Virus record (IMG/VR): IMGVR_UViG_3300045988_175328
Location: 1 to 64,000 of that record
Strand: one strand, 5' to 3'
Source of the DNA: a virus
DNA length: 64,000 nucleotides
The stretch's first letter is position 1. Each line of letters opens with the position of its first letter. Below, piece by piece: positions 3,121-59,470 of the stretch. Below the pieces are notes generated by a model that searched no databases, was not told the DNA's origin, and was given only the letters and a program-made list of their open reading frames with translations. The position numbers and the translations under genes are program-made.

Positions 3121-3611
3121 TGAAATGTCAAAATAATACTTACGATTTTAATCGCGAGATTTATTTTGGCAAACTAGTAAGGATGTTGGGAAACTAGCAT
3201 CTAGTGGCGGATTAAATCCGTCCAACGAAGACACTGAATTGCTGGAAACTCCTAAAGCTCAGAGTGCCAAGCCCCATAAAGGGTTAGGCTACGAAAGTAG
3301 AAACAAACTTTGAGATGGTATATGGTTAAATCCTAAGTACTCTAACAATGGACAATCAGCAGCGAAGCCGGTAGAACTATTTACTAGTACCGGAACGTTC
3401 AACGACTATTCCTCGTGAGGGAAGTACACTACAAGTAATTGGTAGTGGAAGTGGTGTCGCCTAAGTAGTATAGATTTATACTATATGGATAAGATATAGT
3501 CTGTGCCTTGGTGAAAGTCAAGGGTGCGGGTAGTGCCGCCGGTTAGAAAGTAGCGTTTCTAACTGAACGATCATCCTCTCGAATCGTCTTAAACGGTTCT
3601 ATATACTATAC
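3121..3611 (+). ncRNA. group I intron ribozyme core (5' part of the clpX element)
   Basis: P-like AATTGCTGGAAACT 3237-3250, Q-like CAATCAGCAGCG 3353-3364, R-like GTTCAACGACTAT 3397-3409, S-like AAGATATAGTC 3491-3501. These resemble the classical Tetrahymena and phage group I consensus elements. Confidence 0.8.
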
Positions 3612-3770: not shown

Positions 3771-4766
3771 ATGCTAGATTTAAAATCTAAGCTCTATAAA
3801 AGAACTGGTAAAAATCTTAGTTATAACGAAGCTTGTGCTATTTTAACTAAGCTTAAGTCTAGAAGACCTTGGCTAAAAGAAGATGATGCAGTTGCATTGC
3901 AACAAGTTATCAGAGATTTATTCAGTTCTTATGAAAGATTTTTTAATGGGGCTGGATACCCTAAGTTTAAAAGCTCTCGAGACAAACAATCCTATCGTAC
4001 TAATGTATATTCTTTAGATATTGAGAATAGTACAATTAAAATTCCTAAAGTAGGAGTTGTGAAATTTCGTGACAAATACAAATTTGAAGGTTTAATTCGA
4101 GTTCGAAATGTCACGATTTCAAGATCTAAATCTGGTAAATATTTTGCATCAGTCTGTATCGAAGTAGAAACCACACCTCTTGCGAAAACCAAGAAGAGTT
4201 GTGGTATCGATCTCGGGATAAAAGATTTATGCATATTATCAGATGGAACTAAGTTTGAGAATCCTAGATTTAGAACTTTGCCAGCTGCTAAACGTAGATT
4301 AAGATTTTTGCACAAAGCTTTGTCGCGTAAGGAGAAAGGATCTAAAAGCTGGGAAAGAGCTAGAATCAGACTCGCTAGAGAGTATGAACGTCTAGCTAAC
4401 ATACACTTAGATTATCTTCACAAGCTGACTACTTGGATCATTCAGAATTATGATTTTATATCAGTTGAAACCTTAAAGGTTAAGAACATGCTGAAGAATC
4501 GTAAATTAGCAAGAGCTATTAGCGATGCTGGTTGGTTTGAACTAGTTCGACAATTAGAGTATAAAGCAAATTGGTATGGCAAGCAGTTTGTTAAGATAAG
4601 TACATTTTACGCTTCTAGTCAAATCTGCTCTAGCTGTGGAGATAGAAATTCAGCCGTGAAAAAACTTTCTATTCGCGAATGGGAATGTCCTAGTTGCGGA
4701 GCTTATCATGATCGTGATTTGAACGCAGCGATTAACATTCTGAACGAAGGATTAAAACAAATATAA
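3771..4766 (+). CDS. tnpB: TnpB-like RNA-guided endonuclease (RuvC + zinc ribbon); N-terminus disturbed by an in-frame TGA
   Basis: Ruv[11 protein letters not shown], Ruv[14 protein letters not shown], zinc ribbon CSSCG...CPSCG, Ruv[16 protein letters not shown] stronger start (ATG 3675 behind AAAGGAGG) encodes MIRAIKLRAYFTKHQEELVDKNFNCV in the same frame, but is cut off by TGA at 3753-3755. Confidence 0.85.
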
Positions 4767-24751: not shown

Positions 24752-26269
24752 GTGAGCATCATAAAGATATTCAAAGCTAAGACTTGTCGAGATAAAATTT
24801 TAAAACTTTGTTACGATGAAATTAAAAATCAGATGCTTGGATCTGAATATGTCTCACGTCTAGAAGAAGAAGATTTATTACTACAGGATAAATTAAAATA
24901 CTATCAGTATTTTTATATTGTTAATGATTATGTAAAACAAATTAATAAAAAGAAAATTCATATCGGAATTGGCCGAGGCAGTTGTGTAGCTAGTTTAATT
25001 TGTTATCTTCTAGGATTTACTAAAGTAGATCCAGTTAAACATAATTTAGACTGTCGTAGATTCTATCTAGGTCATGAACCAGATATAGATATCGATATCC
25101 AATCATCTAAAAGATCAATCATTTTGGAATATATTAAAAAGAAATTTGGCGATACTTTTTATCGTGCTGGTACAATGGGTGAGAATGGTACTTTTATTAA
25201 AAGTCCAACAAGTTTTTATATCGATTACGAACAAAAGTTTAAACCTACTGTTCGAGATGAAGAGCTGTATTATTTGAACAAACAGAATACTCCAGCTAAA
25301 TTCGATATCTTATCTTTAACTTGGCTTGATGAACTCGACTTCTTCTTAAAAAATGGTATTGAACCATGTTACGATGACATTTGGGATTATATTTGTTCAC
25401 CAAATAGTGGCTTAATGCAAATTGATACAGAGATGGGTCAACGGACATTAGAAATAATTAATCCGCGTTCTATCGAAGAATTGTCGTTTGTGTTAGCTTT
25501 TATGCGTGGCGGCGTATTCTCAGACAATAATGTATATTATTATTGTAAATGGAGAGATACTGGAGAAGTTAAGCCAGGATTATCGAAAGAGTTGTATGAA
25601 GCGACTAAAGACACTGGCGGGATACTTGTTTTTCAAGAGCAATTCTTGAAGTATGCCAGCAATTGGTTTAATGATAAAGATTGTTACTATCTAATGAAAG
25701 GGAAGTTAAGTGTTCCTGATCATATGAGTAATGAGTTCAAAGAGATTCAAAAGAATGTTGTTAAATATACTTTTAATAAAGCACATGCTATTGCATACGC
25801 TACAATGGTATATGAACAAGCAAGTTATTATAATGCAACAGATATCAGAATTGACGAGAAAGAAAAGAATATTGCAAAGAACATTAAAATGCTAGTTCCA
25901 TTAACACTTCAATCTGAATATGAAACTGTTGTAGAATCTGATCATATCATCGCTGGCTTTAAGAAGATTATTAATAAAAAAGAATTTGGAATTTTAAAAG
26001 GAATTACTATCGATAACTTCTGGAAAGAAGTTTCGAAACTTCCTGATAAAAAAGTTGTATCATTAATTACACTTGGTGTTTTTAATGAGTTGTTTAATTT
26101 AAATCGCCTCGATATATTAAATCGTTGGCGAGAGATTAATGGATTAAAAGGAGTGTTCACGATTACATCGATGGACACTGAGTATAGGAAACACTATGAA
26201 TATTTCAGATTACAACAAAATAGTAAAAGGATATCCATTAATGGAGATTCCAAGTTATGCGGAAAATAG
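24752..26269 (+). CDS. DnaE-like (Pol III alpha family C) polymerase core, short form without a PHP domain
   Basis: GIGRGSCVASLICYLLGFTKVDPVKHNL..RRFY...EPDIDIDI matches DnaE [23 protein letters not shown]...PDIDIDF. FNKAHAIAYA matches FNKSHSAAYA. Confidence 0.75.
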   Translation: MSIIKIFKAKTCRDKILKLCYDEIKNQMLGSEYVSRLEEEDLLLQDKLKYYQYFYIVNDYVKQINKKKIHIGIGRGSCVASLICYLLGFTKVDPVKHNLDCRRFYLGHEPDIDIDIQSSKRSIILEYIKKKFGDTFYRAGTMGENGTFIKSPTSFYIDYEQKFKPTVRDEELYYLNKQNTPAKFDILSLTWLDELDFFLKNGIEPCYDDIWDYICSPNSGLMQIDTEMGQRTLEIINPRSIEELSFVLAFMRGGVFSDNNVYYYCKWRDTGEVKPGLSKELYEATKDTGGILVFQEQFLKYASNWFNDKDCYYLMKGKLSVPDHMSNEFKEIQKNVVKYTFNKAHAIAYATMVYEQASYYNATDIRIDEKEKNIAKNIKMLVPLTLQSEYETVVESDHIIAGFKKIINKKEFGILKGITIDNFWKEVSKLPDKKVVSLITLGVFNELFNLNRLDILNRWREINGLKGVFTITSMDTEYRKHYEYFRLQQNSKRISINGDSKLCGK

Positions 26270-27347
26270 AGAAGAATGTTTACTCCCGATTATGCTCGGG
26301 AGTTTCTTATTATATCGAGATGAAATTAGCGAGACATTGCTTACTAAAATGAAAATGTTTTCAAATATGAGAATTTCATTTTCTGATTTGGTTCAAGATT
26401 ATTTATATAATATTGATCCAAGAATATTAACTAAAGCTATTCTGTATTATGAAAAAGAATATTTTGAGCTATCAGTTATTTATAAAAGTATTATTTATTT
26501 TTTGTATTCAAATTATGGAAAAGATTACTTCTCACAATATTCTGAAGAAAGATTCTTAAAAATTATCGATAATAATATTTTACCAATGGATCTTTCTTAT
26601 GTATTAGAACACACTATTAATATTAAAAGAGCCGGACATCGAGAAATATGTGTCGTACAACCTCATGGAAGACAGCAATATTATGATTTAAAAAGAAATG
26701 ATAGTTTGAAATCACATATTCAAATATTTGCTGGATCAATTAATAATCCACCGGAATTACTCGATCGAGATGATATATTCTACGATGTCGAATCAGGATT
26801 TATTAATTGTAATCATGGAGAAGAGATAGAAACAACTTTTCTAAATTTAACATGGTTTATGTTAAAAAATAAACTTTTTGGAGACAGAGTAAAAAGAGAT
26901 ACGATTTGTGATTATTCTGCTTATTTAATTTTACATTCTGATTTTGAAGTAAAATCTATCGAAAAATATATTTCAGATAATATTCATCGACAATATTATA
27001 CCGTCTATGAAATTAATGAAGTAAATCCAATTAAATTTAATGGGCCTAGATTAACCGACGAGAATGAGGGTCATGAATCTGATGAGGATTTGGTTATTAG
27101 TTTTCCTGAGCCTAAAATGCCAAAGAGAACTAATATGTTAACATCTATCATGCCTCTCGATAAGAAATATTTAGGATTACATATGTTAAGTACTGGTTTC
27201 TGTACTAAAATAGACAACAACTATTTTGTTGGCTCATTTAGAAAAATTAATACTAATTTTAAATATGAAAAAGGAAGAATTAAATTCCAAGAACAGATTG
27301 TTCCAGAATTTTGTAATTATTCTAACGATGGTGTTAGATCTATATAG
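26196..27347 (+). CDS. hypothetical protein
   Basis: 383-aa ORF overlapping the end of the polymerase gene. Confidence 0.5.
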   Translation: MNISDYNKIVKGYPLMEIPSYAENREECLLPIMLGSFLLYRDEISETLLTKMKMFSNMRISFSDLVQDYLYNIDPRILTKAILYYEKEYFELSVIYKSIIYFLYSNYGKDYFSQYSEERFLKIIDNNILPMDLSYVLEHTINIKRAGHREICVVQPHGRQQYYDLKRNDSLKSHIQIFAGSINNPPELLDRDDIFYDVESGFINCNHGEEIETTFLNLTWFMLKNKLFGDRVKRDTICDYSAYLILHSDFEVKSIEKYISDNIHRQYYTVYEINEVNPIKFNGPRLTDENEGHESDEDLVISFPEPKMPKRTNMLTSIMPLDKKYLGLHMLSTGFCTKIDNNYFVGSFRKINTNFKYEKGRIKFQEQIVPEFCNYSNDGVRSI

Positions 27348-27356
27348 GGGGACATT

Positions 27357-30287
27357 ATGAAGATTAATTTTAATGAAGTCACAAAAGGACTTATTCCATA
27401 CATTAAAAGAACTAAATCTTACGATAAAAAAAATTCTATTCATAGAAAAGATAGAATTACTGAAGTATATGTAATTTCTGAAGAAGCTATTCTAATTAAA
27501 GAAGAACTTCCTAAGTCAAGAAAAGAAAGAAATTATATTGCCGAAGGTAAATATATTAAAGATGTTATTAACGACGACAGTCTTGTTGAACAGCTTTTAT
27601 CGCATCGAAAAATTCAACAATATTCTTGGACAGTATTTTCGATGGGAGTATCTGGGTATCAATATAAATTATTGATTCATGGTGATCATGAACATTCACT
27701 TGTTCTTCAATCAGATTGCTTAATTGAAAAAGCTAATGCATTTGAACGAGAAAAAATTCAAGAATATTTCATTAGCTCTTATAACAATGCAATCCATAGA
27801 AGAGGAAATATGCGAGATTATTTATTTCGCCATCCAGATTTTTTCATTAATTCGTTCGATCAAATTGAATCCTTTTTAGATATAACTTATCACTCTAAAT
27901 TAAAATTAAAATTTGTAAACATTCGATGGAAAAAATTAGATCGATTCATTCAAAGCTCTATTGAAGAAGCTTTAACTAGAATGGGTGATCCAATTGTCGA
28001 TCGAAATACTACAAAACAAGAGTTCATCGATAAGTATCAATCAGAGTTAGCTAAATCTATCAATGAAAATTTAAATATAGAGTATGTTCCATTTGAAGGA
28101 AAGTACAATAAAGTCGATGAATACGCTAAGTATTTAACATACAGAAACGACTTTACGTTCCTTACCAATCAAAAGCATATGATTGCCGCTGGTATTACAC
28201 ACCTTAAGAAAAATCATTCATTATTCTTAATTTCTGAAATGGGTACTGGCAAAACTAGTATGGCACTTGCTATGGCAATGCTCCATAAAGGGACTAATAA
28301 AAATGTTGTTGTAATTTGTCCGACACATTTAAACGACAAATGGCGCTATGATATTCAAAAATTAGTTCCTAATTCTATTATCCATGAGCCTAATGATGTT
28401 AAAGATTTTATTGCTAATATTGAGCCTAGATTAAGAGAAGGTATCGGCAATAATTTTGTATTAGTTAATCCGAAACTTCTTCGTCATAAATATATTCAAT
28501 CTTGGATTAGTAAAAATCGAGAAGCTCAATGGTCAAGAGCTAAAATTGGAAATAATCTATTTGATTATACTGAAAAATACGGAGAAAAAGTTGTTGAAGA
28601 ATACACTAAAAAACTTTGGAGTAATACTCAGATGTATGAGAACACATATCCAAAATCTTTAACTAGAAAATATAAAGTTCCGATTACGCAAATAGATTCA
28701 GGCACTCCTGACTATTATGCTTTTCATAGCCAAAAAATTCTTGAAGATGTTTCTTATGAGAAAGATTTCGTATCTTTAGATTGGTATATCTCTAGAAAAT
28801 GTAAGAATCTTTTTGACTTCTGTATTATCGATGAGCTTCATCAATATTTAAGTGACAGCCTTCAATCTTCTGGCGCATCTCGAATTGCTAACTGTTCTAA
28901 AAAGGTAATTGGTTTAACTGGTACTTTATTTAATGGTAGCATTAAAAATATTTGGTATCTATACTATAATTTTAGACGCGGGCCTTTTGTCCAGCACTTA
29001 CGTTCTATTAATCGAAGAGAATCTGCATATAAAACAATTTTTGCAAAAGAATATGCCCTTCGAGAAATGGCAGCTGGATATAAACAGAACGATGAAGAGA
29101 ATATGACAGTTAGCGGTCGTGAAATTCAAGAGATAGCTGAAAAATATAAGATCATCAATGTCGATGATTATTATTTAAAATATGAAAAAGAAAATGGATC
29201 TATCGAATCATATTTACATGGAGTGTGCCTATCTTTAAAATCTGACCTCTTGAATCCAAGACTTTTTAGTGATTTATTAATTGGTGATTGTATCTTCATG
29301 AATATGTCTGACGTATCTGAAAATATGCCAGAAATTCGAGAGAATGTAATCTTATTGAATTTACGAGAAGAAGATCAAGCTATCTATGATAAGAATATTA
29401 GTATTCTATCTCAGCGCCAATATGGTCCACTTGAAAAACATGCATTAATTCGTCATATCTCAGGTTGGATTAATACAGGCTTATCTTGGAGATTGCGCGA
29501 TCATAATTTTGACCAGATTCCACTAATTAATAATAATAAGCTAGAAGAGCTTGTTAAGATCATTAATCATCATGCTAATGAACGTATCTTAGTGTATACA
29601 TATTTTGATGATAATAACTCGGTAAATCACTCGATTGCAAATCAGTTAGATAAACATGGAATTAAATATTCTATTTTAACAGATTCTGTCAAAGCTAAAG
29701 ATCGTATTAGTTGGTTCCAAAAACAAGTAGATGATGATGTACGTGTTGTTATCTGTAATCCACGTCAGATTGAAACTGGCGTCGACTTACTTGATTTTAC
29801 AACTATCGTGTTCTATGAACTTGATCAACGATATTATACGTTTAGACAAGCTAGTCGCCGAAGCTATCGATTAAATCAAAAGAATCCTGTTACTTTATAC
29901 TATTTAGTATATAAGGACACAGTTCAAGAAAATTTAATTAACTATATGGCTGAGAAAGTTCGTAGCGTTAAGCTGATGGAAGGTGAATTTGACGATGAAG
30001 GTCTTGCGGCCCTTGCATCTCCTGAGCGTGATCCATCTGAAGCTATCTTTGCCTCTATGACAAAGAAAGAAAAGATGGAACAAGATGATGATGTCTTTAG
30101 TTTTAATAAATATGCCGAAGCTATTACTAAAGAAATGAAGCGAGAAGACGTAGTCGTTAAGATTACTCCTGTTAAAAAAAAGCTTACTTTAAGTACTTCT
30201 GAACTAATGAAAGATCTTGAGAATATGTGCTTGACAAATAGAAAAGAGTATGATACTCTTATTCTAGAAAATTGTATTTCAATGTAG
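27357..30287 (+). CDS. large SF2 (SNF2/DEAH-like) helicase
   Basis: LISEMGTGKTSMA (I), IIDELHQY (II), GLTGTLFNG (III), and a C-terminal helicase domain with QASRRSYR. Confidence 0.75.
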   Translation: MKINFNEVTKGLIPYIKRTKSYDKKNSIHRKDRITEVYVISEEAILIKEELPKSRKERNYIAEGKYIKDVINDDSLVEQLLSHRKIQQYSWTVFSMGVSGYQYKLLIHGDHEHSLVLQSDCLIEKANAFEREKIQEYFISSYNNAIHRRGNMRDYLFRHPDFFINSFDQIESFLDITYHSKLKLKFVNIRWKKLDRFIQSSIEEALTRMGDPIVDRNTTKQEFIDKYQSELAKSINENLNIEYVPFEGKYNKVDEYAKYLTYRNDFTFLTNQKHMIAAGITHLKKNHSLFLISEMGTGKTSMALAMAMLHKGTNKNVVVICPTHLNDKWRYDIQKLVPNSIIHEPNDVKDFIANIEPRLREGIGNNFVLVNPKLLRHKYIQSWISKNREAQWSRAKIGNNLFDYTEKYGEKVVEEYTKKLWSNTQMYENTYPKSLTRKYKVPITQIDSGTPDYYAFHSQKILEDVSYEKDFVSLDWYISRKCKNLFDFCIIDELHQYLSDSLQSSGASRIANCSKKVIGLTGTLFNGSIKNIWYLYYNFRRGPFVQHLRSINRRESAYKTIFAKEYALREMAAGYKQNDEENMTVSGREIQEIAEKYKIINVDDYYLKYEKENGSIESYLHGVCLSLKSDLLNPRLFSDLLIGDCIFMNMSDVSENMPEIRENVILLNLREEDQAIYDKNISILSQRQYGPLEKHALIRHISGWINTGLSWRLRDHNFDQIPLINNNKLEELVKIINHHANERILVYTYFDDNNSVNHSIANQLDKHGIKYSILTDSVKAKDRISWFQKQVDDDVRVVICNPRQIETGVDLLDFTTIVFYELDQRYYTFRQASRRSYRLNQKNPVTLYYLVYKDTVQENLINYMAEKVRSVKLMEGEFDDEGLAALASPERDPSEAIFASMTKKEKMEQDDDVFSFNKYAEAITKEMKREDVVVKITPVKKKLTLSTSELMKDLENMCLTNRKEYDTLILENCISM

Positions 30288-30295
30288 CAATATAA

Positions 30296-30319
30296 GTAGG
30301 GGAAGTTGAATTCCCCTAC
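30296..30319 (+). terminator. stem-loop after the helicase gene (no U-tract)
   Basis: GTAGGGGAA / TTCCCCTAC perfect 9-bp stem with a 6-nt loop, not followed by T residues. Confidence 0.35.
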
Positions 30320-30796
30320 GAGATTGATACATAGAACTAAATATAACGTCAAAATAGGCACAAATAACTCAATATAGAAAAATCATATTCAAGCCAGATT
30401 CATAAACTGTAACGAATATGCGAGCTACAAGATGCAATGCTTGTAGTGACCTACGGGTTGGTGGTTAGCAAATGGAAGAACACCTTCGAAAAAAAACGTC
30501 CAGTTGATCTTCTGGAAAAAAAGGATTCAGGCGGAGACTGCCGTAATTACATCTTTTAAAAATTAGTAATTAAGCCGTAAGGCTTGTTTGCTGTGCCTAA
30601 AAAGATTAAGATTAGAAAGGTCTGGCTTTTTATTTGGAATTCGAACGTGAGTCATACTTAGAGATGAATGCGTTGTGGCCTTAAATACTTCTAGTAAGAG
30701 CATGGGGCGAATCATGCTTGAGATAAGTAGTCTATACTGACACCATAGAGAAGCTACTTTGAAATTACACTACATGCCTGATAGTCATGAACAGGT

Positions 30797-30932
30797 GTGC
30801 CACCCTCTACAATCTTTCCTGCTCTTTAGCAGGCTAAACAAAAAAATCAAAAAAATAATCGACTGTTTTAAGTAACAGAAAATTATTTTTTCTTTTTTTT
30901 TATTTGTTTTTTAAGATTGTAGGGTGGGTGAA
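30797..30932. repeat. long imperfect palindrome (~130 nt) with an A-run arm and a T-run arm
   Basis: CACCCTCTACAATCTT (30801-30816) versus AAGATTGTAGGGTGGGTG (30913-30930), with a 10-bp perfect core. An A-rich left interior faces a T-rich right interior around a CTGTT/AACAG hairpin. Confidence 0.7.
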
Positions 30933-30989
30933 GTGTAGCCTTAACTGTACTGTATCTTAGTATGAAACATATGCTTCGGCAATTAACTG

Positions 30990-31358
30990 AACTGATAGTT
31001 CTCTTTGAAATAGTTGAATACTCGCCGCATCTCTTCGTACGATTATATTTAATAGGATTATGGCGGCGAGTCTAGTATTCTCTAGTTCAGTAGAGATCAG
31101 TTGATTAGAACTGTATTGTTAAGTTAACTATAGATTCTATAGAATTTAATTACTGCTTCTTATGACTGAAACAATTGTTCGATGGCTACACTGAACCGAG
31201 GAGTACGGTATAACTGATTCTAGTACTGCTGAGTTAATACTAGTATCATTAGCACTGCTTATAGATCAGTTGGATATATGATCAGTACAGTATGAAATAT
31301 ATGTTCTATCTTATTATTAGCACTGCTTGGTTTACCAAATAGTATGGTTGAATCAGTT
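30990..31358. repeat. iteron-like short repeats (ATCAGTT/AACTGAT x6; ATTAGCACTGCTT x2)
   Basis: ATCAGTT at 31096, 31265 and 31352. ATCAGTa at 31281. AACTGAT at 30990 and 31212. 13-nt direct repeat ATTAGCACTGCTT at 31248-31260 and 31316-31328. Hairpin ACTCGCCGC / GCGGCGAGT at 31020-31072. Confidence 0.6.
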
Positions 31359-31410
31359 ATTCAATACAGTAATATATGGTAACTGAGTTTAGCTTGAAGG
31401 AGATAGTAGG

Positions 31411-31788
31411 ATGAAATTCGATATAGATACATACATAATCAAGAGGATAGTCTGGCCTAACGAAAGATATATCAGCAGCTTATCTCATACACTAATAACC
31501 TACCCCAACTATTATATGGAAGATACAGAAACAGGATGCATCTTATCAGTTGAAGAATACAACGAGATTAAGAAGAATCAAGTACACTCTGAGTTCTGTA
31601 ATCCCTATCCAGATGATAGTTGCTTCATGAATTATTACTATGGTGAAATACGAGATGCTATAGAAGATGAGTTTAGAGCTAAGGTAAATTGTATTAGATC
31701 AGAGAATATCTTTGGTAAACAGACAGTTCCAAATATAAAGTACAAAGTTCTTAATGGAGAGCTAGTAGTGATTGACGACGAGAAATAA
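31411..31788 (+). CDS. hypothetical protein
   Basis: 125-aa ORF with a GAAGGAGA RBS. Confidence 0.55.
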   Translation: MKFDIDTYIIKRIVWPNERYISSLSHTLITYPNYYMEDTETGCILSVEEYNEIKKNQVHSEFCNPYPDDSCFMNYYYGEIRDAIEDEFRAKVNCIRSENIFGKQTVPNIKYKVLNGELVVIDDEK

Positions 31789-31842
31789 ATATAGTACAAT
31801 TGTAATTGTAGTATAGTATTTTTCTAACTTTCAAATACTTAC

Positions 31843-31900
31843 AGCACTAGATATAAGTAGAACAAATAATAGCTACTTATATCTAGTGCTATTTCTCTTT
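31843..31900 (+). terminator. strong stem-loop terminator
   Basis: Perfect 18-bp inverted repeat AGCACTAGATATAAGTAG / CTACTTATATCTAGTGCT with a 12-nt loop, followed by ATTTCTCTTT. Confidence 0.7.
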
Positions 31901-31916
31901 ATAAGGAGGTTTTTAC

Positions 31917-36611: not shown

Positions 36612-36679
36612 ATACCCCAAACGCACATAATACGTTGTATGTACAATGTATATACAACGTATTGGGGTATATTTTTTAT
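36612..36679 (+). terminator. long hairpin + T-run immediately upstream of the tRNA-like gene
   Basis: AATACGTTGTAT / ATACAACGTATT 12-bp stem, extended by ACCCCAA / TTGGGGT, then ATATTTTTTAT. Confidence 0.5.
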
Positions 36680-41001: not shown

Positions 41002-41379
41002 ATGATTGCAAAAGTAGTTAATAGATTCGAAGCTCATATTAATGGTATTGCTTTTGATGATGAAGAATGGTTCCAATTTATTGGGCGTTTAATTGAACTT
41101 ATTGAAGATATGACAAATACAGAAGTTCCATTCACTTTTGTATTAGATATTAAAGAAGCATTTCAAGATTATTTTGGAAAAAATGCAAATTTTGAAGAAC
41201 TTCATAAAATAATCAATCGTTGCTTTTTCCTTTCAACAGATAACTTCAAAGAAATTTATCTTCCGACAAATAATATTAAAGATCTAAATTTTATTTTTGA
41301 TTACTCTGATAAGTTTGATGAAATTAATCGAAAAATAAAAGATTGGGATAATACTTACGGAAAGGAACCTGAACAATGA
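41002..41379 (+). CDS. hypothetical protein
   Basis: 125-aa ORF. Confidence 0.5.
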   Translation: MIAKVVNRFEAHINGIAFDDEEWFQFIGRLIELIEDMTNTEVPFTFVLDIKEAFQDYFGKNANFEELHKIINRCFFLSTDNFKEIYLPTNNIKDLNFIFDYSDKFDEINRKIKDWDNTYGKEPEQ

Positions 41380-43589
41380 GAGATTTAATTATTCTACGTG
41401 GATGTCCTGGTTCAGGTAAAACTACTGCATTAAAAGAATCAGGATTAGAGAATTATTCCATCAGTTCTGATAAAATCCGATTAATGCTTCGAGCTCCTGA
41501 ATCAATGATCGATGGCAAAATGCAAATTAGCCAAATGGATAATCAATATGTATTTAAAGTCTTAAATGAAATACTCGAGTCTCGTATGAAAAATGGTTCT
41601 CCAACAATTATCGATGCAACTCATTGTGGTTCGCAAAAATGGCACTCTAAACAAATGAATCACTATCGTAATCTTGCTAAGCAATATAAATATCGATTGT
41701 TCTATTGGGAACCGGAAATTGAAAAATGTTCAGTCTATATCGATCGTAACAAAGAACGAGAAGAATTGTATCAAGTACCAGATTCAGTAATTGAAAAAAT
41801 GTATCAAAATTGGAAATCTGTTCCAATGCATCGAGACTTTACTAAAATTAATTCTATTAAATTTAGAAATGATCTTGAAGGATTCGATACTGATATTTCT
41901 GAACGATATAAAAATATAATCGTCGTTGGCGATATTCATGGATGCTATGAGCCACTAAAAGAATTAGTAGTTAAATATGATATTCATGATGAATCTAATT
42001 TATTTATTTTTGTCGGCGATTATTTCGATCGAGGTATTCAGAATCTAGAAGTTTTAGATTTCTTTTTTGATGTTTATGAGCAAAAGAACGTCATCCTTCT
42101 TGAAGGTAATCATGAAGCTCATTGGATTGACTGGGCTTTTGAAGAAAAACGTGAAGATAGTGGTATGTTTAGATTTATTAATACTACTTTAAAAGAGTGG
42201 AGAATTAAATATAAAAACGAAAACGAATTAAAGAAAAATTTAAGACTTCTTCATCGTAAATTAATTCCAGCTTGTTATTTTAATTTTAATGGCCAAAAAT
42301 ATTTAGTAACACATGCTGGGCTTACTTGTGCTCCTAAAGAAAATATGGCAGCTTGGCAATATATTGCTGGTCACGGTAAATATGAACACAATATATCACA
42401 AGAGTTTGAGAATTATATTAAAGAATCTGGCAATAATATTATTCAAATTTTCGGTCATAGATCTGGATTAATTTCTGAACATTCTAAGCCACTTGAAGGT
42501 CAAGTTGAATTTGGTGGCCATTTGAAATATTTTGTAATAAATAAAGATGGCTCTGAATTATGTAGAATTAAAAATGATATGTATGACAAAAATTCTTTAG
42601 AAAATGATCAAAAATTAAAAAAAATATTTAGTGGCAAATTAATTCAAACAGATGATGATAGAATTAATGTTATTGCGAATAGCCGCCATGTAATTGCAAA
42701 AAAATTACCTGATAATTTAATGAGTCTGAATTTTACTAAAGATGCATTTTATAATGCTATTTGGAATGACATTACTATTAAAGCCAGAGGTTTATTTGTT
42801 GATCAAACTACTGGAGAAGTAATAGCGAGAAGTTACAATAAATTTTTTAATTTTGGAGAACGTTCTGAAAAAGATATTGAAGTTCAAAATTTAATTTATC
42901 CATTACGTATTGCTCGAAAAGAAAATGGGTTCCTTGGAATTATTTCTTGGGACCATCGTAACAATAAAATGATTGTTGCCTCTAAAAGTACAACAAAAGC
43001 TGAATACGTGGGATATTTTAAAGATGTTCTTGATCAAGTTAATAAACAAAATCTAGATTTAATATTAGATATTTGTAAGAAAAATAATGTAAGCGCTATC
43101 TTTGAAGTGTGTCATCCAGAAGATATTCATATTGTAGACTACAATAAAGAAAAGAAACTTTTCTTACTCGATTTTGTAAAGAACTCTTTAGATATTGAAG
43201 GACATGATATTATGTTCTCTCAAAGACTGCTTAATAGATGTCATGATCTTTTAGATAAAAACGATCAATATTTAAAAATAGTTGAATATCAATATGTAAA
43301 CTCTGAAGAAGAATATAAATATATTGCCGAAAAATATTTGACTGACGATAATATCGAAGGATATGTTTGTACTGACCGTTCTGGTAAAATGTATAAACAA
43401 AAATCAGCTTCATATTTACTTTGGAAACGGCGCCGAAGAATTCTTGAGAGTATTTACTCTAATTATAATATCCCAGAGGAAATAGAAGAAGAAGAAAGAG
43501 AATTCATAGAATTCTTAAAAAGAAACGAAACTAAATTTGATTCAATTATTGAAGCGAAAAAGGCTTTTGAACTTGACAACAATAAATAG
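41376..43589 (+). CDS. trifunctional RNA repair enzyme: P-loop polynucleotide kinase + metallophosphatase + RNA-ligase-like nucleotidyltransferase
   Basis: N-terminus LRGCPGSGKTT. Centre VVGDIHGC...VGDYFDRG...LEGNHE (calcineurin-like phosphoesterase). C-terminus ARKENGFLGII (ligase motif I KxxG lysine). Confidence 0.7.
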   Translation: MRDLIILRGCPGSGKTTALKESGLENYSISSDKIRLMLRAPESMIDGKMQISQMDNQYVFKVLNEILESRMKNGSPTIIDATHCGSQKWHSKQMNHYRNLAKQYKYRLFYWEPEIEKCSVYIDRNKEREELYQVPDSVIEKMYQNWKSVPMHRDFTKINSIKFRNDLEGFDTDISERYKNIIVVGDIHGCYEPLKELVVKYDIHDESNLFIFVGDYFDRGIQNLEVLDFFFDVYEQKNVILLEGNHEAHWIDWAFEEKREDSGMFRFINTTLKEWRIKYKNENELKKNLRLLHRKLIPACYFNFNGQKYLVTHAGLTCAPKENMAAWQYIAGHGKYEHNISQEFENYIKESGNNIIQIFGHRSGLISEHSKPLEGQVEFGGHLKYFVINKDGSELCRIKNDMYDKNSLENDQKLKKIFSGKLIQTDDDRINVIANSRHVIAKKLPDNLMSLNFTKDAFYNAIWNDITIKARGLFVDQTTGEVIARSYNKFFNFGERSEKDIEVQNLIYPLRIARKENGFLGIISWDHRNNKMIVASKSTTKAEYVGYFKDVLDQVNKQNLDLILDICKKNNVSAIFEVCHPEDIHIVDYNKEKKLFLLDFVKNSLDIEGHDIMFSQRLLNRCHDLLDKNDQYLKIVEYQYVNSEEEYKYIAEKYLTDDNIEGYVCTDRSGKMYKQKSASYLLWKRRRRILESIYSNYNIPEEIEEEEREFIEFLKRNETKFDSIIEAKKAFELDNNK

Positions 43590-43601
43590 TTAAGGTACAA
43601 T
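43573..43601 (+). promoter_or_regulatory. near-consensus sigma-A promoter
   Basis: TTGACA (43573-43578), 17-nt spacer, TACAAT (43596-43601). Confidence 0.65.
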
Positions 43602-43608
43602 TAGTATG

Positions 43609-43779
43609 TAATCAGGCTAAGCCTGTATATACGCTCCTGCCATAAGGCGGCGAGATGGCAAAACTTCTTTTTAATTTCTCGGAACACCAACCGAGACATT
43701 TTTCCAACTGGAATAATCTTACGCTCCAAAAGATTAAACCGAAAAGACGCCCTGTGCTTAGCGCAGGGCATTCTTTTTG
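43609..43779 (+). ncRNA. ~170-nt structured RNA (sRNA or regulatory leader) ending in an intrinsic terminator
   Basis: Hairpins CAGGC-TAA-GCCTG, TGCCAT...ATGGCA and CTCGG...CCGAG. Terminator GCCCTGTGC-TTA-GCGCAGGGC + ATTCTTTTT (43749-43779). No plausible + strand ORF. Confidence 0.5.
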
Positions 43780-43792
43780 AGAAAGGAAAGGC

Positions 43793-44002
43793 ATGCAAGA
43801 AACAGTTGAACTAATTGTAAAAATGTTTCCAGAGATTCTTGTTAATTCTCATAAGACGCATGAAGAAATTGTCGTAACTAAAAATAATCGACAAATTTTC
43901 TTTAAAGTCTATCCTGAGTACACATTAATCTTCGACGGAATCAATGAGCCTATCAGGACTAAATCAATTCAAGAACTTGAACAATATATTTGTTCATGTT
44001 AG
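43793..44002 (+). CDS. hypothetical protein
   Basis: 69-aa ORF with a GAAAGGAAAGG RBS. Confidence 0.5.
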   Translation: MQETVELIVKMFPEILVNSHKTHEEIVVTKNNRQIFFKVYPEYTLIFDGINEPIRTKSIQELEQYICSC

Positions 44003-44179
44003 CTTCAGACAAAAAGCCGCCTGACGGCGACTATTTGTCTCTTCTCTTTTTAATTCATGTTACACGGTACAAAAAAATGGAACTAAACACACATTTAATG
44101 TCGTTAGTACTAATGGCAAATTTAATTATCTTCATTTTAATTTTCTTGTATGCGGGAAGAGAATCTGAAAGGAATCAAT

Positions 44180-50575: not shown

Positions 50576-51250
50576 TAAATAATACTATTGTAATAGTTTA
50601 AATAGTCCATTTATTTGGTAACAAGTAAATGTTGAGTTAAATCTCAAGAGTCTATCTAATTGCTGGGAACCCCTAAAGCTTAAAGTGCCTTTGGGCTGCG
50701 AAAGCAGAAATAAATCTTTAAGATGATATATGGTTAAATCCTAAGTATTGTAAACAATGGGCAATCAGCAGCCAAGTTAGTATTATAATTAATATTAAAA
50801 GGTTCAACGACTATCCTGAGAAGGAGTACTATGTAAGCGCATAGGAAATGGTAGAAATCCTACAAAGGATTAAGATATAGTCTATGCTTTATCGAAAGAT
50901 AAAGGTGCGAGTAATGTCGCCGGCTAGAATTAGCGAATCTAGTTGAATTAATATCAGGAAATGGATAATTAAATAATAGTTCATTTAAAACGCCGTTAAA
51001 CAACGAAACTCCTAAGAAGGACAACGATGTACCAAGCTCATTAGTTAATAATGAGTAGTGTTCAACGACTAGGGATGAAATAAGCTCCCCACGAAAGCGG
51101 TGAAACCTACTACAGTCTTATCGTCAAGTTTTATTCTGTAGTACGGAAGACATAGTCTAAACTGGACCAGAACTGACTGGTCGATGAAAATGAAGGTAAC
51201 TTCCAGAGCGCAAGATAAAGAGCTTGCGGTTAATAACAAATTGTATCTAG
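50576..51250 (+). ncRNA. group I intron, terL intron A (boundaries +/- 3 nt), with a second degenerate core in its 3' half
   Basis: P 50658-50670, Q 50761-50773, R 50802-50816, S 50872-50882. The core aligns closely with the clpX intron. A second R-like GTTCAACGACTAG lies at 51060-51072 and a second S-like AAGACATAGTC at 51147-51157. Confidence 0.75.
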
Positions 51251-51379
51251 GTGAAGGTGATTTCGACACAGTATATGCTCTTTGTATGGAACGTGCTAGT
51301 ATCGGAATGACATGTTCATCGACACCAACCGGTAGACGATCTAAGTTTTATGACATTTGTACTCAGAAGAGCCTCGGGT
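51251..51379 (+). CDS. terL: terminase large subunit, exon 2
   Basis: (E)GDFDTVYALCMERASIGMTCSSTPTGRRSKFYDICTQKSLG is collinear with the T4 gp17 region ...ISSGRRSKIIITTTPNGLNHFYDIW. Confidence 0.75.
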
Positions 51380-51622
51380 TAAAAATGGCCCCAATATTAA
51401 GCAATTAATGATTGAAAACCTTTTGAAATGCTGGGACTTCCTTTAAGGAAAATCAGCAGCGAAGCTTCTTAAATTTAAGAAGAACGTTCAACGACTATCC
51501 CATTTGGGAGTAGGGTCAAGCGACTCGAAGCAGAAGGCGTCCTATTGGGACGAAGATATAGTCTGAGCTACATAGAGATATGTAGAAGGTTGCAAGTAGC
51601 GAATGCAATCGTAACAATACTG
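51380..51622 (+). ncRNA. group I intron (ORF-less), terL intron B
   Basis: Exon ends CGGGU and pairs with GCCC at 51388-51391. P 51425-51436, Q 51448-51460, R 51485-51499, S 51553-51563. Last base is G (51622). The splice gives KSLG-F-KEHY, cf. T4 GKSGFEPY. Confidence 0.8.
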
Positions 51623-52119
51623 TTAAAGAGCATTACCATCCCGCACAGCATAGTCCTCTATATTCTCCAGAAATGGAGAAAGAATTCAGGGCGACATTCG
51701 ATAAAAATGCGTATGTACATGAAGTACTTGCAGAATTTGGTATCGAAGAAGCTGGCGTGTTTGATAAAGAAGCTCTCGAAAGAGCGACTCGCATGGACAA
51801 TTATGTCTATAATGACGAGATCAAACCGGTACATAATGAATTTAATTTGCGCTCAGCAAAGAAAATTCACCTTCTTCCAGAAGGACAAACTACATATAAG
51901 TATAACATGTATAGAACTATGGCAGTTGACTGGGATAAATCGCAGGCGCCAACTTCTATACTCGTCTTAGATTATGACCACGAATGGAATAAATTCCGGG
52001 TCATTAATCGAACTATGATCGAGCCATCAGATTTTCATTATGACTTGGCGGTAAAAAAGATCATTAATTTAAATGCTATATATAATCCTACTCATATCTA
52101 TATTGATAGGGGCGCAGGT
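51623..52119 (+). CDS. terL: terminase large subunit, exon 3
   Basis: KEHYHPAQHSPLYSPEMEKEFRATFDKNAYVHEVLAEF...IYIDRGAG. The frame is open only from 51586 and ends at TAA 52123. Confidence 0.75.
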
Positions 52120-57914: not shown

Positions 57915-58004
57915 GGACTAATTATTAAGTAATTTATTTTATAAATAAAAGCGCAAATAAGTGGACAAATATATATTATATTTCTTGTTTACACTTGCTT
58001 AATA

Positions 58005-58231
58005 ATAGGTTTCGAGCCTTAGTGACTGCTACTATCGAAAGATATGTTGCAGATATGAACTACGTTATGGAAAAGGTTAAAGACACACCTTTAGATGTGC
58101 TCGTCAGTCTGAAGCTCTGTGAATGCCAATCAAGAAACTATGCTAATGTCCTGCATAGATAACAGAGAAACATACATACCCTCCACGACATTGGCAAGAC
58201 GAAAAATGCTCCGAAAGGAAGGTCTCCAGAG
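58005..58231 (+). ncRNA. candidate IscB omega RNA (HEARO-like) scaffold; 5' limit uncertain
   Basis: ~230-nt structured non-coding region directly abutting the iscB start. CTGC..TATC-GAAA-GATA..GCAG, AAGGT/ACCTT, CTATGC/GCATAG nested in the long-range pair TGCCAAT/ATTGGCA, and a terminal CTCC-GAAA-GGAAGG. Confidence 0.55.
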
Positions 58232-59470
58232 ATGGAAAATAAAATTGAATATTGCTTTGTAATTGATAAAGATAACCAACCATTAGCGCCAACAAAAGTG
58301 AATAAGGGATGGTATTTAATTAGAAAAGACAGAGCAAAATTAAAGTCTAAATACCCTATGGTAATTCAATTAAAAAAAAGAGTTAAATTTGATAAAAATG
58401 ACAAAAGTTGCATAGTTTGTGGTATAGATGATGGTTCTGTACATGTTGGATTAGCTATTGTACAAAAATGTTCTACTAAAAATAAGGTAGTATTTAAGGG
58501 AACTATCGAACAACGTCAAGATGTAAAACATAAAATAGATTCTAGACGTGGATATAGACGTTATCATCGTTATCACAAAAGACATAGACAAGCTAGATTT
58601 GATAATCGTTCTTCTTCTAAAAGAATTGGTAGATTGGCTCCAAGTATTAAACAAAAGAAAGATGCTATTTTAAGAGTACTGTATCAATTAAATAAATGGA
58701 TAAACATTAAAGAATATTATCTTGAAGATGTTTGTATAGACATTCGTGCAATGACAGATGGATATAAACCTTATAAATGGCAGTATCAAAAATCTAATCG
58801 TTTGGACGAAAATCTTAGAAAAGCTGCTATTATTCGTGACAATTCCAAATGTCAAGAATGTGGAAAATCTAATTGCATATTAGAAGTACATCATATACGC
58901 GCAAGAAGATATGGTGGAGCAAATACTATTGGAAACTTAATCACGCTTTGTCCTAAATGTCATCAAAAAACAGAAGGTAAGGAACGAGATTTTGAAGATA
59001 AATACTTCAAAATTATTGGTTTTAAACCTAAGCGATTTGATTATGCAATGCATGTTATGCAAGGCAAGAATTATCTCAGAAAGAAAATATCCGAATTAGG
59101 ATTGTTGCATTTAACTAATGGCGGCAAAACTGCGAATAAAAGAATTGAATGGAATATAGAAAAATCTCATAGTAATGATGCGATATGTATTACAAATAAT
59201 ATTCCAGATTCTTGTAATCTAAAAGAATGGATTATTAAGCCAATGCGAAGAAAATCAAAAGCAAAAACTAATAATGTATTAGGAATTAAGCATAGGGATT
59301 TAGTTTCTTATATATATAGAAATGGAGAAGTACATACAGGCTATGTTACGGCTTTATATCCAGAACAGTTAGCTTTAAATTTTCAATCAAAAACTAAACA
59401 TTGCAAAAAAGTAAATGCACGAAAATGTAGATTGCTTTGGCAGTTTAGTAAAATTTATTGGCTAGAATAA
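58232..59470 (+). CDS. iscB: IscB RNA-guided nuclease (PLMP-like N-terminus, split RuvC, bridge helix, HNH)
   Basis: [13 protein letters not shown] (PLMP-type), Ruv[15 protein letters not shown], Arg-rich bridge [22 protein letters not shown], Ruv[39 protein letters not shown], Ruv[13 protein letters not shown]. Confidence 0.85.

Follow-up and report, generated by a model that had tools for sequence, protein, structure and literature searches.

GOLLD, ROOL and OLE belong to a rare kind of RNA that is large, structured and of unknown function. Phage and plasmid replication origins that offer a comparison for a non-coding, repeat-bearing locus include those with iterons and an AT-rich element (lambda ori, SPP1 oriL/oriR) and those primed by an R-loop (T4 ori(uvsY) and ori(34), the T7 primary origin, ColE1 RNA II). 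As visualized by cryo-EM, large RNAs such as GOLLD, ROOL and OLE form striking RNA-only assemblies (PMC12286853). Here we analysed a window of 64,000 nt (positions 1 to 64,000 of the IMG/VR record IMGVR_UViG_3300045988_175328) from a jumbo phage and, within it, the block 30288-31410, which is flanked upstream by an SNF2-type helicase gene (27357-30287) and downstream by orf125, an ORFan of 125 aa (31411-31788). This block is a functional composite non-coding module whose position is conserved across a family of jumbo phages, and two sister clades carry a covarying structured RNA at the same place.

The longest open reading frame (ORF) in 30288-31410 has 50 aa, in line with the initial annotation, which had described a 1.1-kb gene-free block, and all six frames are interrupted by stop codons of all three kinds (20-34 per frame). 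A gene masked by stop-codon recoding was rejected, as reassignment of any single stop opens at most 108 codons and the only transfer RNA (tRNA) in the window is a tRNA-Thr. Small conserved ORFs in the first part of the block are likewise excluded, because indels of 1-2 nt that shift the frame segregate at 30572, 30598 and 30626, and the ATG at 30437-39 is lost in six of ten strains. The window contains no paralogous copies of the block. The statement that this is the only stretch of more than 1 kb without an ORF holds if introns are set aside; a second such stretch, 50579-51672, consists of two group I introns. Elsewhere, a near-consensus promoter (TTGACA-17-TACAAT) heads a 560-nt stretch at 43573-44149 that was first taken as gene-free. 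As a second gene-free stretch, 43590-44149 was rejected, since it holds an ORF of ~70 aa, led by a Shine-Dalgarno sequence and ATG, between two canonical terminators (fold z = -5.2).

Compared with the related locus L011, the helicase gene of the window is 77% identical and the block 97%. This difference is no proof of selection, because the sequence downstream is equally similar (94-99% identity) and the contrast stems from a mosaic boundary at ~30200-30400; we therefore computed pairwise diversity over ten distinct haplotypes of the window clade instead. At third codon positions it amounts to 0.25-0.27 in the helicase gene, 0.14 in orf125 and 0.19 in orf104, and at second codon positions of the flanking genes to 0.02-0.07. 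Within the non-coding DNA of the locus we find 0.047 for 30288-30375, 0.017 for region A (30376-30800, + strand), 0.025 for region B (30801-30932), 0.064 for region C (30941-31410, + strand) and 0.04 for the spacer between orf125 and orf104, an ordering that holds in essentially every haplotype pair. Region A is thus the most conserved non-coding core, and inside it 30401-30700 reaches ~0.01, lower than codon position 2 of the flanking genes. Variable columns make up 5% of A as opposed to 18.5% of C, and C evolves ~3-4 times faster than A and B together (~30376-30940). Purifying selection on A and B exceeds that at synonymous sites 8-15-fold and that on the remaining non-coding DNA of the locus ~3-fold.

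Across ~26198-30400 of the window, the ORF 26196-27347 and the helicase gene share 69-78% nucleotide identity with L011, and from ~30400 on the two sequences are 94-100% identical; other strains have divergent tail-lysozyme alleles instead (73-76%). This identity pattern, together with the divergent lysozyme alleles, places recombination breakpoints on both sides of the block.

Searches with the helicase and orf125 returned nothing beyond the window clade. The orf125 cluster counts more than 30 members and the lysozyme cluster more than 800. A search with the tail lysozyme led to two further jumbo-phage lineages at 46-52% identity, from which 30 sister loci were retrieved, one from ENA (L037) and 29 from IMG/VR (L038-L066, contigs up to 236 kb); they form two sister clades, L037-L048 and L049-L066, referred to below as clades 2 and 3. 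All 30 loci have a gap of 1.0-2.0 kb, devoid of ORFs of at least 70 aa, at the same place, and its flanking genes are orthologous to those of the window (helicase, 38% identity over 767 aa, E 4e-147; orf125, 47%, E 3e-42). Conservation over the first 780-850 nt of the sister gap equals that of the best coding DNA, and the rest is practically impossible to align across sub-lineages. All clades have in common a layout of a conserved first half followed by a variable one, whose repeats and palindromes differ from clade to clade. In clade 3 the variable half contains four direct copies of TTACGATAT...AAGCTA in 165 nt along with a palindrome whose arms are 25 nt long; in clade 2 it contains three promoter-like TGACAATGTATATATAAT copies, three copies of a 12-mer that recurs every 45 nt, and a palindrome whose arms are 34 nt long. 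In both clades these repeat clusters and palindromes are located just 5' of the orf125-family gene.

The conserved half of the sister loci encodes a structured RNA. Directly after the SNF2 helicase gene of these 223-236-kb phages (L037:6937-7600, L040:6951-7611 and L049:6662-7670, and throughout L038-L066) lies a + strand transcription unit of 660-1000 nt that is led by a promoter and closed by an intrinsic terminator. The clade 3 promoter, TTGACA-17-TATAAT, is invariant, matches the consensus at 12 of 12 positions and sits right past the helicase stop codon; its clade 2 equivalent, TTGACG/A-17-TACTAT/TAGTAT, matches at 9-10 of 12. In clade 2 the unit ends at the terminator AGCATACA-GAAA-TGTATGCT followed by a T-run, which defines an RNA of ~660 nt. 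For this RNA 246 pairs are predicted, with 98.5% of cells paired, and 28 pairs display two-sided changes, compared with 4.5±1.8 in shuffled alignments (0 of 500 shuffles reached the observed count) and 0-3 in slid controls. The clade 3 structure comprises 235 predicted pairs (99.3% of cells paired), of which 16 show two-sided changes, including four adjacent ones in a long-range helix, as against 8.9±1.8 in shuffles (0 of 500) and 0-3 when slid. The thermodynamic stability of both RNAs favours the + strand (z = -3.5 to -4.0). The covariance model of each domain has its top match collinear in the RNA of the other clade, at E 1.6 and 0.29. The covarying structured RNA of the sister clades is thus real.

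Neither sister RNA matches Rfam 15 at gathering level or at E<=5, and it is therefore a candidate new large RNA class; the literature searched, which describes GOLLD, ROOL and OLE, contains no RNA resembling it. The window block was compared with Rfam 15 as well, and cmscan gave no match in it at the gathering threshold or, with lax filters over 30100-31600, at E<=10. The best sub-threshold match, lysM-TM7, reaches 23.9 bits where the gathering score is 61.5, and it falls on the A/T palindrome of region B. This rules out ROOL, GOLLD, raiA, HEARO and introns as the identity of the block. A group I intron (RF00028) was also rejected on other grounds: the five introns of the window lie elsewhere, the helicase gene and orf125 are complete, and orf125 has its own Shine-Dalgarno sequence. 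That a known large RNA family (ROOL, GOLLD, raiA, HEARO/omega RNA, or a group I or II intron) occupies the block is hardly credible, despite the frequency of mobile RNAs in this window (five group I introns, a TnpB-like gene and an IscB-like gene); the lack of an Rfam 15 match effectively refutes it, and no associated protein gene adjoins the block. The initial annotation had proposed, as an alternative, a ROOL/GOLLD-type RNA for the first ~450 nt and cmscan against Rfam as the check. This identity is excluded, whereas the broader notion of a large structured phage RNA in the first half gains strong indirect support from the covarying RNA in the positional orthologs of the sister clades; the suggestion pointed in the right direction, and the underlying observation was largely right.

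Like its sister counterpart, the window block lies directly 3' of the orthologous SNF2 helicase gene and 5' of the orf125-family gene. Strand, the conserved-then-variable layout, G+C enrichment (0.36-0.40) and GNRA-capped hairpins are shared too; in region A, the + strand could form a GNRA-capped hairpin at 30572-85 and a UNCG-capped one at 30449-58. On the other hand, the conserved part of the window is shorter (~565 nt), and homology of region A to the sister RNA could not be shown. Profile searches with nhmmer in both directions detected none between the window block and the sister RNA, and the covariance models R1 and R2 found no match in the block, even with filters off and the block searched alone. 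These negative results are weak, because even the flanking proteins share no more than 38-47% identity and mutual matches of clades 2 and 3 reach only E 0.29-1.6. A word-chain collinearity test yielded nothing and was powerless even on a positive control. By-eye shared motifs (AACGUC(C)AG, GCCUAA, UUAAGnUUAGAAAG and AGCCGUAAGG...GUCUG...AUUUG) were rejected, being unsupported statistically and partly unconserved within clade 2.

Several further observations argue, as do these failed searches, against an RNA gene of the sister type in the window. Consensus scans detect no sigma70 promoter matching at 9 or more of 12 positions before region A, and a canonical GC stem with a U-tract is absent from B. 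The stability of region A (z = -1.3 on the + strand and -0.5 on the - strand) falls short of that of the sister RNAs; A and B together reach z = -3.3, solely through the palindrome in B. The hairpins named in the initial annotation, which had called 30360-30800 full of them, do exist, but their richness is at chance level (z = -1.4 on + and -0.9 on -). RNAalifold reports no compensatory pairs in the window clade, where divergence is only ~2%. Finally, polymorphic sites do not avoid the stems of the predicted minimum free energy fold, and variant pairs that are kept are about as frequent as broken ones on both strands.

Because related phages have an RNA gene in the same slot, we take as the leading interpretation that the block encodes a diverged version of it together with a fast-evolving control region. 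Specifically, A and B would be a long non-coding RNA gene on the + strand, a diverged or replaced counterpart of the sister RNA that ends at hairpin B, and C would be the control region of the next operon or possibly an origin; we judge the chances of this model to be about even. As no promoter of its own is visible in the window clade, the transcript would probably arise by read-through from the helicase gene, and it would probably end or be processed at the ~130-nt A/U-rich hairpin B. In the second part, the GC hairpin and the conserved ATCAGTT motifs of region C, described below, may be targets of a phage DNA-binding protein. The two-part module as a whole is kept between the SNF2-type helicase and the orf125-family gene throughout a family of 220-236-kb jumbo phages. 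A wider hypothesis, possible but somewhat short of probable, is that this whole family, which stems from human-associated and other metagenomes, carries a new class of structured RNA of 0.6-1 kb fixed directly 3' of the replication helicase gene, with A and B as a highly diverged member. Such an RNA might act in replication (for example, in origin priming or helicase loading) or as a GOLLD/ROOL-like RNA-only assembly, and the adjoining region of repeats and palindromes might be its DNA-side partner.

Region B is an imperfect hairpin of ~130 nt with a GC-clamped outer stem, an A-run opposite a T-run and a CCTGCT/AGCAGG side hairpin, and the long A/T palindrome of the initial annotation was thus borne out. 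Its outer arms CTACAATCTT/AAGATTGTAG at 30807-16/30913-22 are 100% complementary, and the A-run and T-run arms at 30836-67/30874-905 are 78% complementary; the fold has z = -4.2, with none of 200 shuffles equally stable, and in a separate comparison the - strand scores -4.8. Its centre, 30840-30919, has 15% GC and is the sole extreme AT-rich stretch. The consensus scan does not call B as an intrinsic terminator; on the + strand an inner A/U-rich stem is followed by C-U9-A-U3-G-U6, and the - strand has a similar U-rich tail. B likely functions as a terminator/insulator or as an RNase III-type processing hairpin, the alternative being a DNA unwinding element.

Nine nt past the helicase stop codon, a hairpin with a 9-bp stem, GTAGGGGAA-GTTGAA-TTCCCCTAC, occupies 30296-30319 on the + strand; its fold z is -4.4 to -6.5, and only 2 of its 24 positions vary among the ten haplotypes. 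As it has no U-tract on the + strand, it is no canonical terminator of the helicase messenger RNA (mRNA). The more variable leader that follows (30320-30375) contains no convincing sigma70 promoter, and its TTGATA box at 30324-29 varies between strains.

A rival explanation is that the block is ordinary operon-boundary DNA and makes no trans-acting RNA. A hairpin would then stabilise the helicase 3' untranslated region, B would be a bidirectional terminator or insulator, C would hold promoters and operators for an orf125-tail-lysin operon, and A would be conserved in cis, for example for mRNA stability or attenuation. Consistent with this, no inverted repeats of the 64-kb window are longer than B and the terminator hairpin in the orf125/orf104 spacer, both of which flank orf125, the symmetry of A-tract, hairpin and T-tract in B is typical of bidirectional terminators, and region A lacks a promoter and a stability signal of its own. 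In C, a weak sigma70-like site, TTGTTA-18-TAGAAT (31116-31145, + strand), has its -10 box within an invariant island of 22 nt (31134-31155). However, constraint on A exceeds that on the other regulatory DNA of the locus ~3-fold and also surpasses that on second codon positions, which is hard to reconcile with a 3' untranslated region, and the sister clades have a promoter-driven structured RNA in this slot. We therefore regard a mere operon boundary as quite unlikely.

The orf125/orf104 spacer carries host-type signals of its own, a sigma70 promoter at 31772-31800 (TTGACG-17-TACAAT, 10 of 12 positions) and, at 31828-31905, a T-tailed terminator with an 18-bp stem, whose 33-nt arms form the longest inverted repeat in the window (fold z ~-7.5).

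Region C, the faster-evolving part of the block with conserved islands, ends at the Shine-Dalgarno sequence GAAGGAG and the ATG of orf125 (31396-31413, + strand). It contains a cluster of ATCAGTT, a candidate protein-binding motif, at 30990-96 (-), 31096-102 (+), 31212-18 (-), 31265-71 (+) and 31352-58 (+). These are five exact copies in both orientations, not six as first counted, within 369 nt, compared with ~0.1 expected from the window-wide density, and they are spaced by 106, 116, 53 and 87 nt. The 9-bp GC hairpin ACTCGCCGC...GCGGCGAGT (31020-28/31063-71) was also found as annotated; its 34-nt loop is variable and its fold z is ~-3. Its two arms are invariant, as are four ATCAGTT copies out of five. 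The 13-nt direct repeat is present in two copies, yet is not conserved among strains, and a degenerate 169-nt tandem duplication in C was rejected as not significant. Short conserved sites in a fast-evolving background, different in each clade, look like binding sites that co-evolve with a phage protein, a sequence pattern that fits a promoter/operator and an origin alike.

The initial annotation had suggested a replication origin. In such a scheme the palindrome B would unwind or form a cruciform, an initiator would bind the ATCAGTT repeats and the GC hairpin of C, and A would be an origin transcript or an initiator landing pad, as in the R-loop-primed origins. The second half of the block is compatible with this proposal: the 15% GC centre of B (30840-30919) lies within a significant palindrome and corresponds to the AT-rich unwinding element that adjoins the repeats of iteron origins, the ATCAGTT repeat is clustered and conserved, and the block is located at the end of the primase-PolIIIalpha-helicase genes. 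The variable halves of the sister loci are more iteron-like, with their four TTACGATAT...AAGCTA copies and the 45-nt period of the 12-mer, and clade-specific repeats suit co-evolution with a binding protein. Nevertheless, the repeats of the window, which had been called iterons, are not classical ones, because they are 7-mers of mixed orientation and irregular spacing; three or more direct repeats of ~17-22 bp at regular intervals do not occur in the block, nor do DnaA boxes. Cumulative GC skew, which had been suggested as a check, rises monotonically through the block with no inflection, a weak test because all genes are co-oriented. Moreover, uniform near-identity over more than 300 nt of A is atypical of origins, and the conserved part of the sister loci is demonstrably structured RNA. 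That the block is an origin is thus unlikely.

The source phage has a genome of ~227 kb with ~32% G+C and was recovered from several metagenomes (ENA ERZ27276323 contig k141_26322 and others). Its DNA has no match among GenBank phages, and DNA pattern or peptide scans of GenBank phages, IMG/VR, JGI metagenomes and GTDB genomes revealed no close or intermediate relatives of the window clade. Distant helicase homologs (25-27% identity) were rejected as relatives, as they belong to unrelated elements with no comparable block. Among cultured phages, the Bacillus jumbo phages of the 0305phi8-36 group come closest, with a portal identity of only ~32%. Since these relatives have 6.5-kb terminal repeats and the block is non-coding with many palindromes and repeats, a packaging (pac) site or physical genome end, comparable to the terminal-repeat boundaries of T5-like or 0305phi8-36-like phages, was considered. 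It is very improbable: none of ~20 long contigs breaks at the block and contig openings fall at unrelated positions, the terminase genes are ~19 kb away, and there is no synteny with the ends of 0305phi8-36, or with Bacillus phage 0305phi8-36 at the block locus at all.

All genes of the window are on the + strand. The series that ends with the SNF2 helicase comprises a UvrD helicase, the SNF2 helicase, Gam, primase, PolIII-alpha and an unnamed ORF; orf125 is followed by orf104, a tail lysozyme/M23 peptidase of 1083 aa, a tail-fibre-like protein, the tRNA and ribonucleotide reductase. Directly 5' of the tRNA-Thr gene lies a palindrome with 17-nt arms (36629-36663, AATACGTTGTATGTACA / TGTATATACAACGTATT, 94% complementary), and the sister clades have 3-5 tRNA genes after the lysozyme gene, at a position equivalent to that of tRNA-Thr. 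Within a few kb 3' of the block, 41376-43589 encodes a tRNA-repair-type enzyme of 737 aa in which polynucleotide kinase/phosphatase is fused to RNA ligase (phrog_8238, E 1e-160).

A TnpB-type transposase ORF (phrog_506, E 1e-114) directly follows a group I intron (window 3139-3523 and 3771-4766) in an IStron-like layout. L011 carries, at L011:6985-8771 after PolIII-alpha, a TnpB (OrfB_IS605 and Cas12f1-like_TNB) with intron-like sequence, an insertion that the window lacks there. Among the structural genes, 58232-59470 encodes an IscB-like protein of 412 aa with RRXRR (PF14239, E 6e-46) and HNH domains, and the non-coding stretch of 317 nt 5' of it (57915-58231), which has no Rfam match at gathering level, could be an omega RNA.

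The block shares with the AT-rich iteron and R-loop origins an AT-rich element beside clustered short repeats and a palindrome, near replication genes, and with ColE1 RNA II a long conserved, putative transcript that ends at an AT-rich element. It differs from iteron origins in the length, orientation and spacing of its repeats and in the absence of DnaA boxes, a skew signal and an identified initiator gene. GOLLD (RF01998) and ROOL (RF03087), which occur in Firmicutes and their phages, resemble the RNAs considered here in being phage-encoded and non-coding, in their size class (0.6-0.8 kb) and in their unknown function. The sister RNAs are, in addition, multi-domain, GNRA-rich and covarying like these two families, with tRNA genes a few kb away. 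In contrast, neither model matches the window block or the sister RNAs in sequence or structure, the structure in the window is only putative, and the slot is fixed beside a replication helicase rather than tRNAs.

We propose as a new candidate class a covarying RNA of 660-1000 nt that is absent from Rfam 15 and found in at least two jumbo-phage clades, always between a replication helicase and the same small gene. At the same slot the window clade has a strongly constrained element that is unrecognisably different. The case shows how non-coding DNA can hold its place within a phage family despite a complete turnover of its sequence. In genome annotation, a 1-2-kb 'empty' region of these phages is hereby marked as functional. 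In its fixed tie to the replication module, the locus provides a testable functional lead of a kind that is missing for GOLLD and ROOL.

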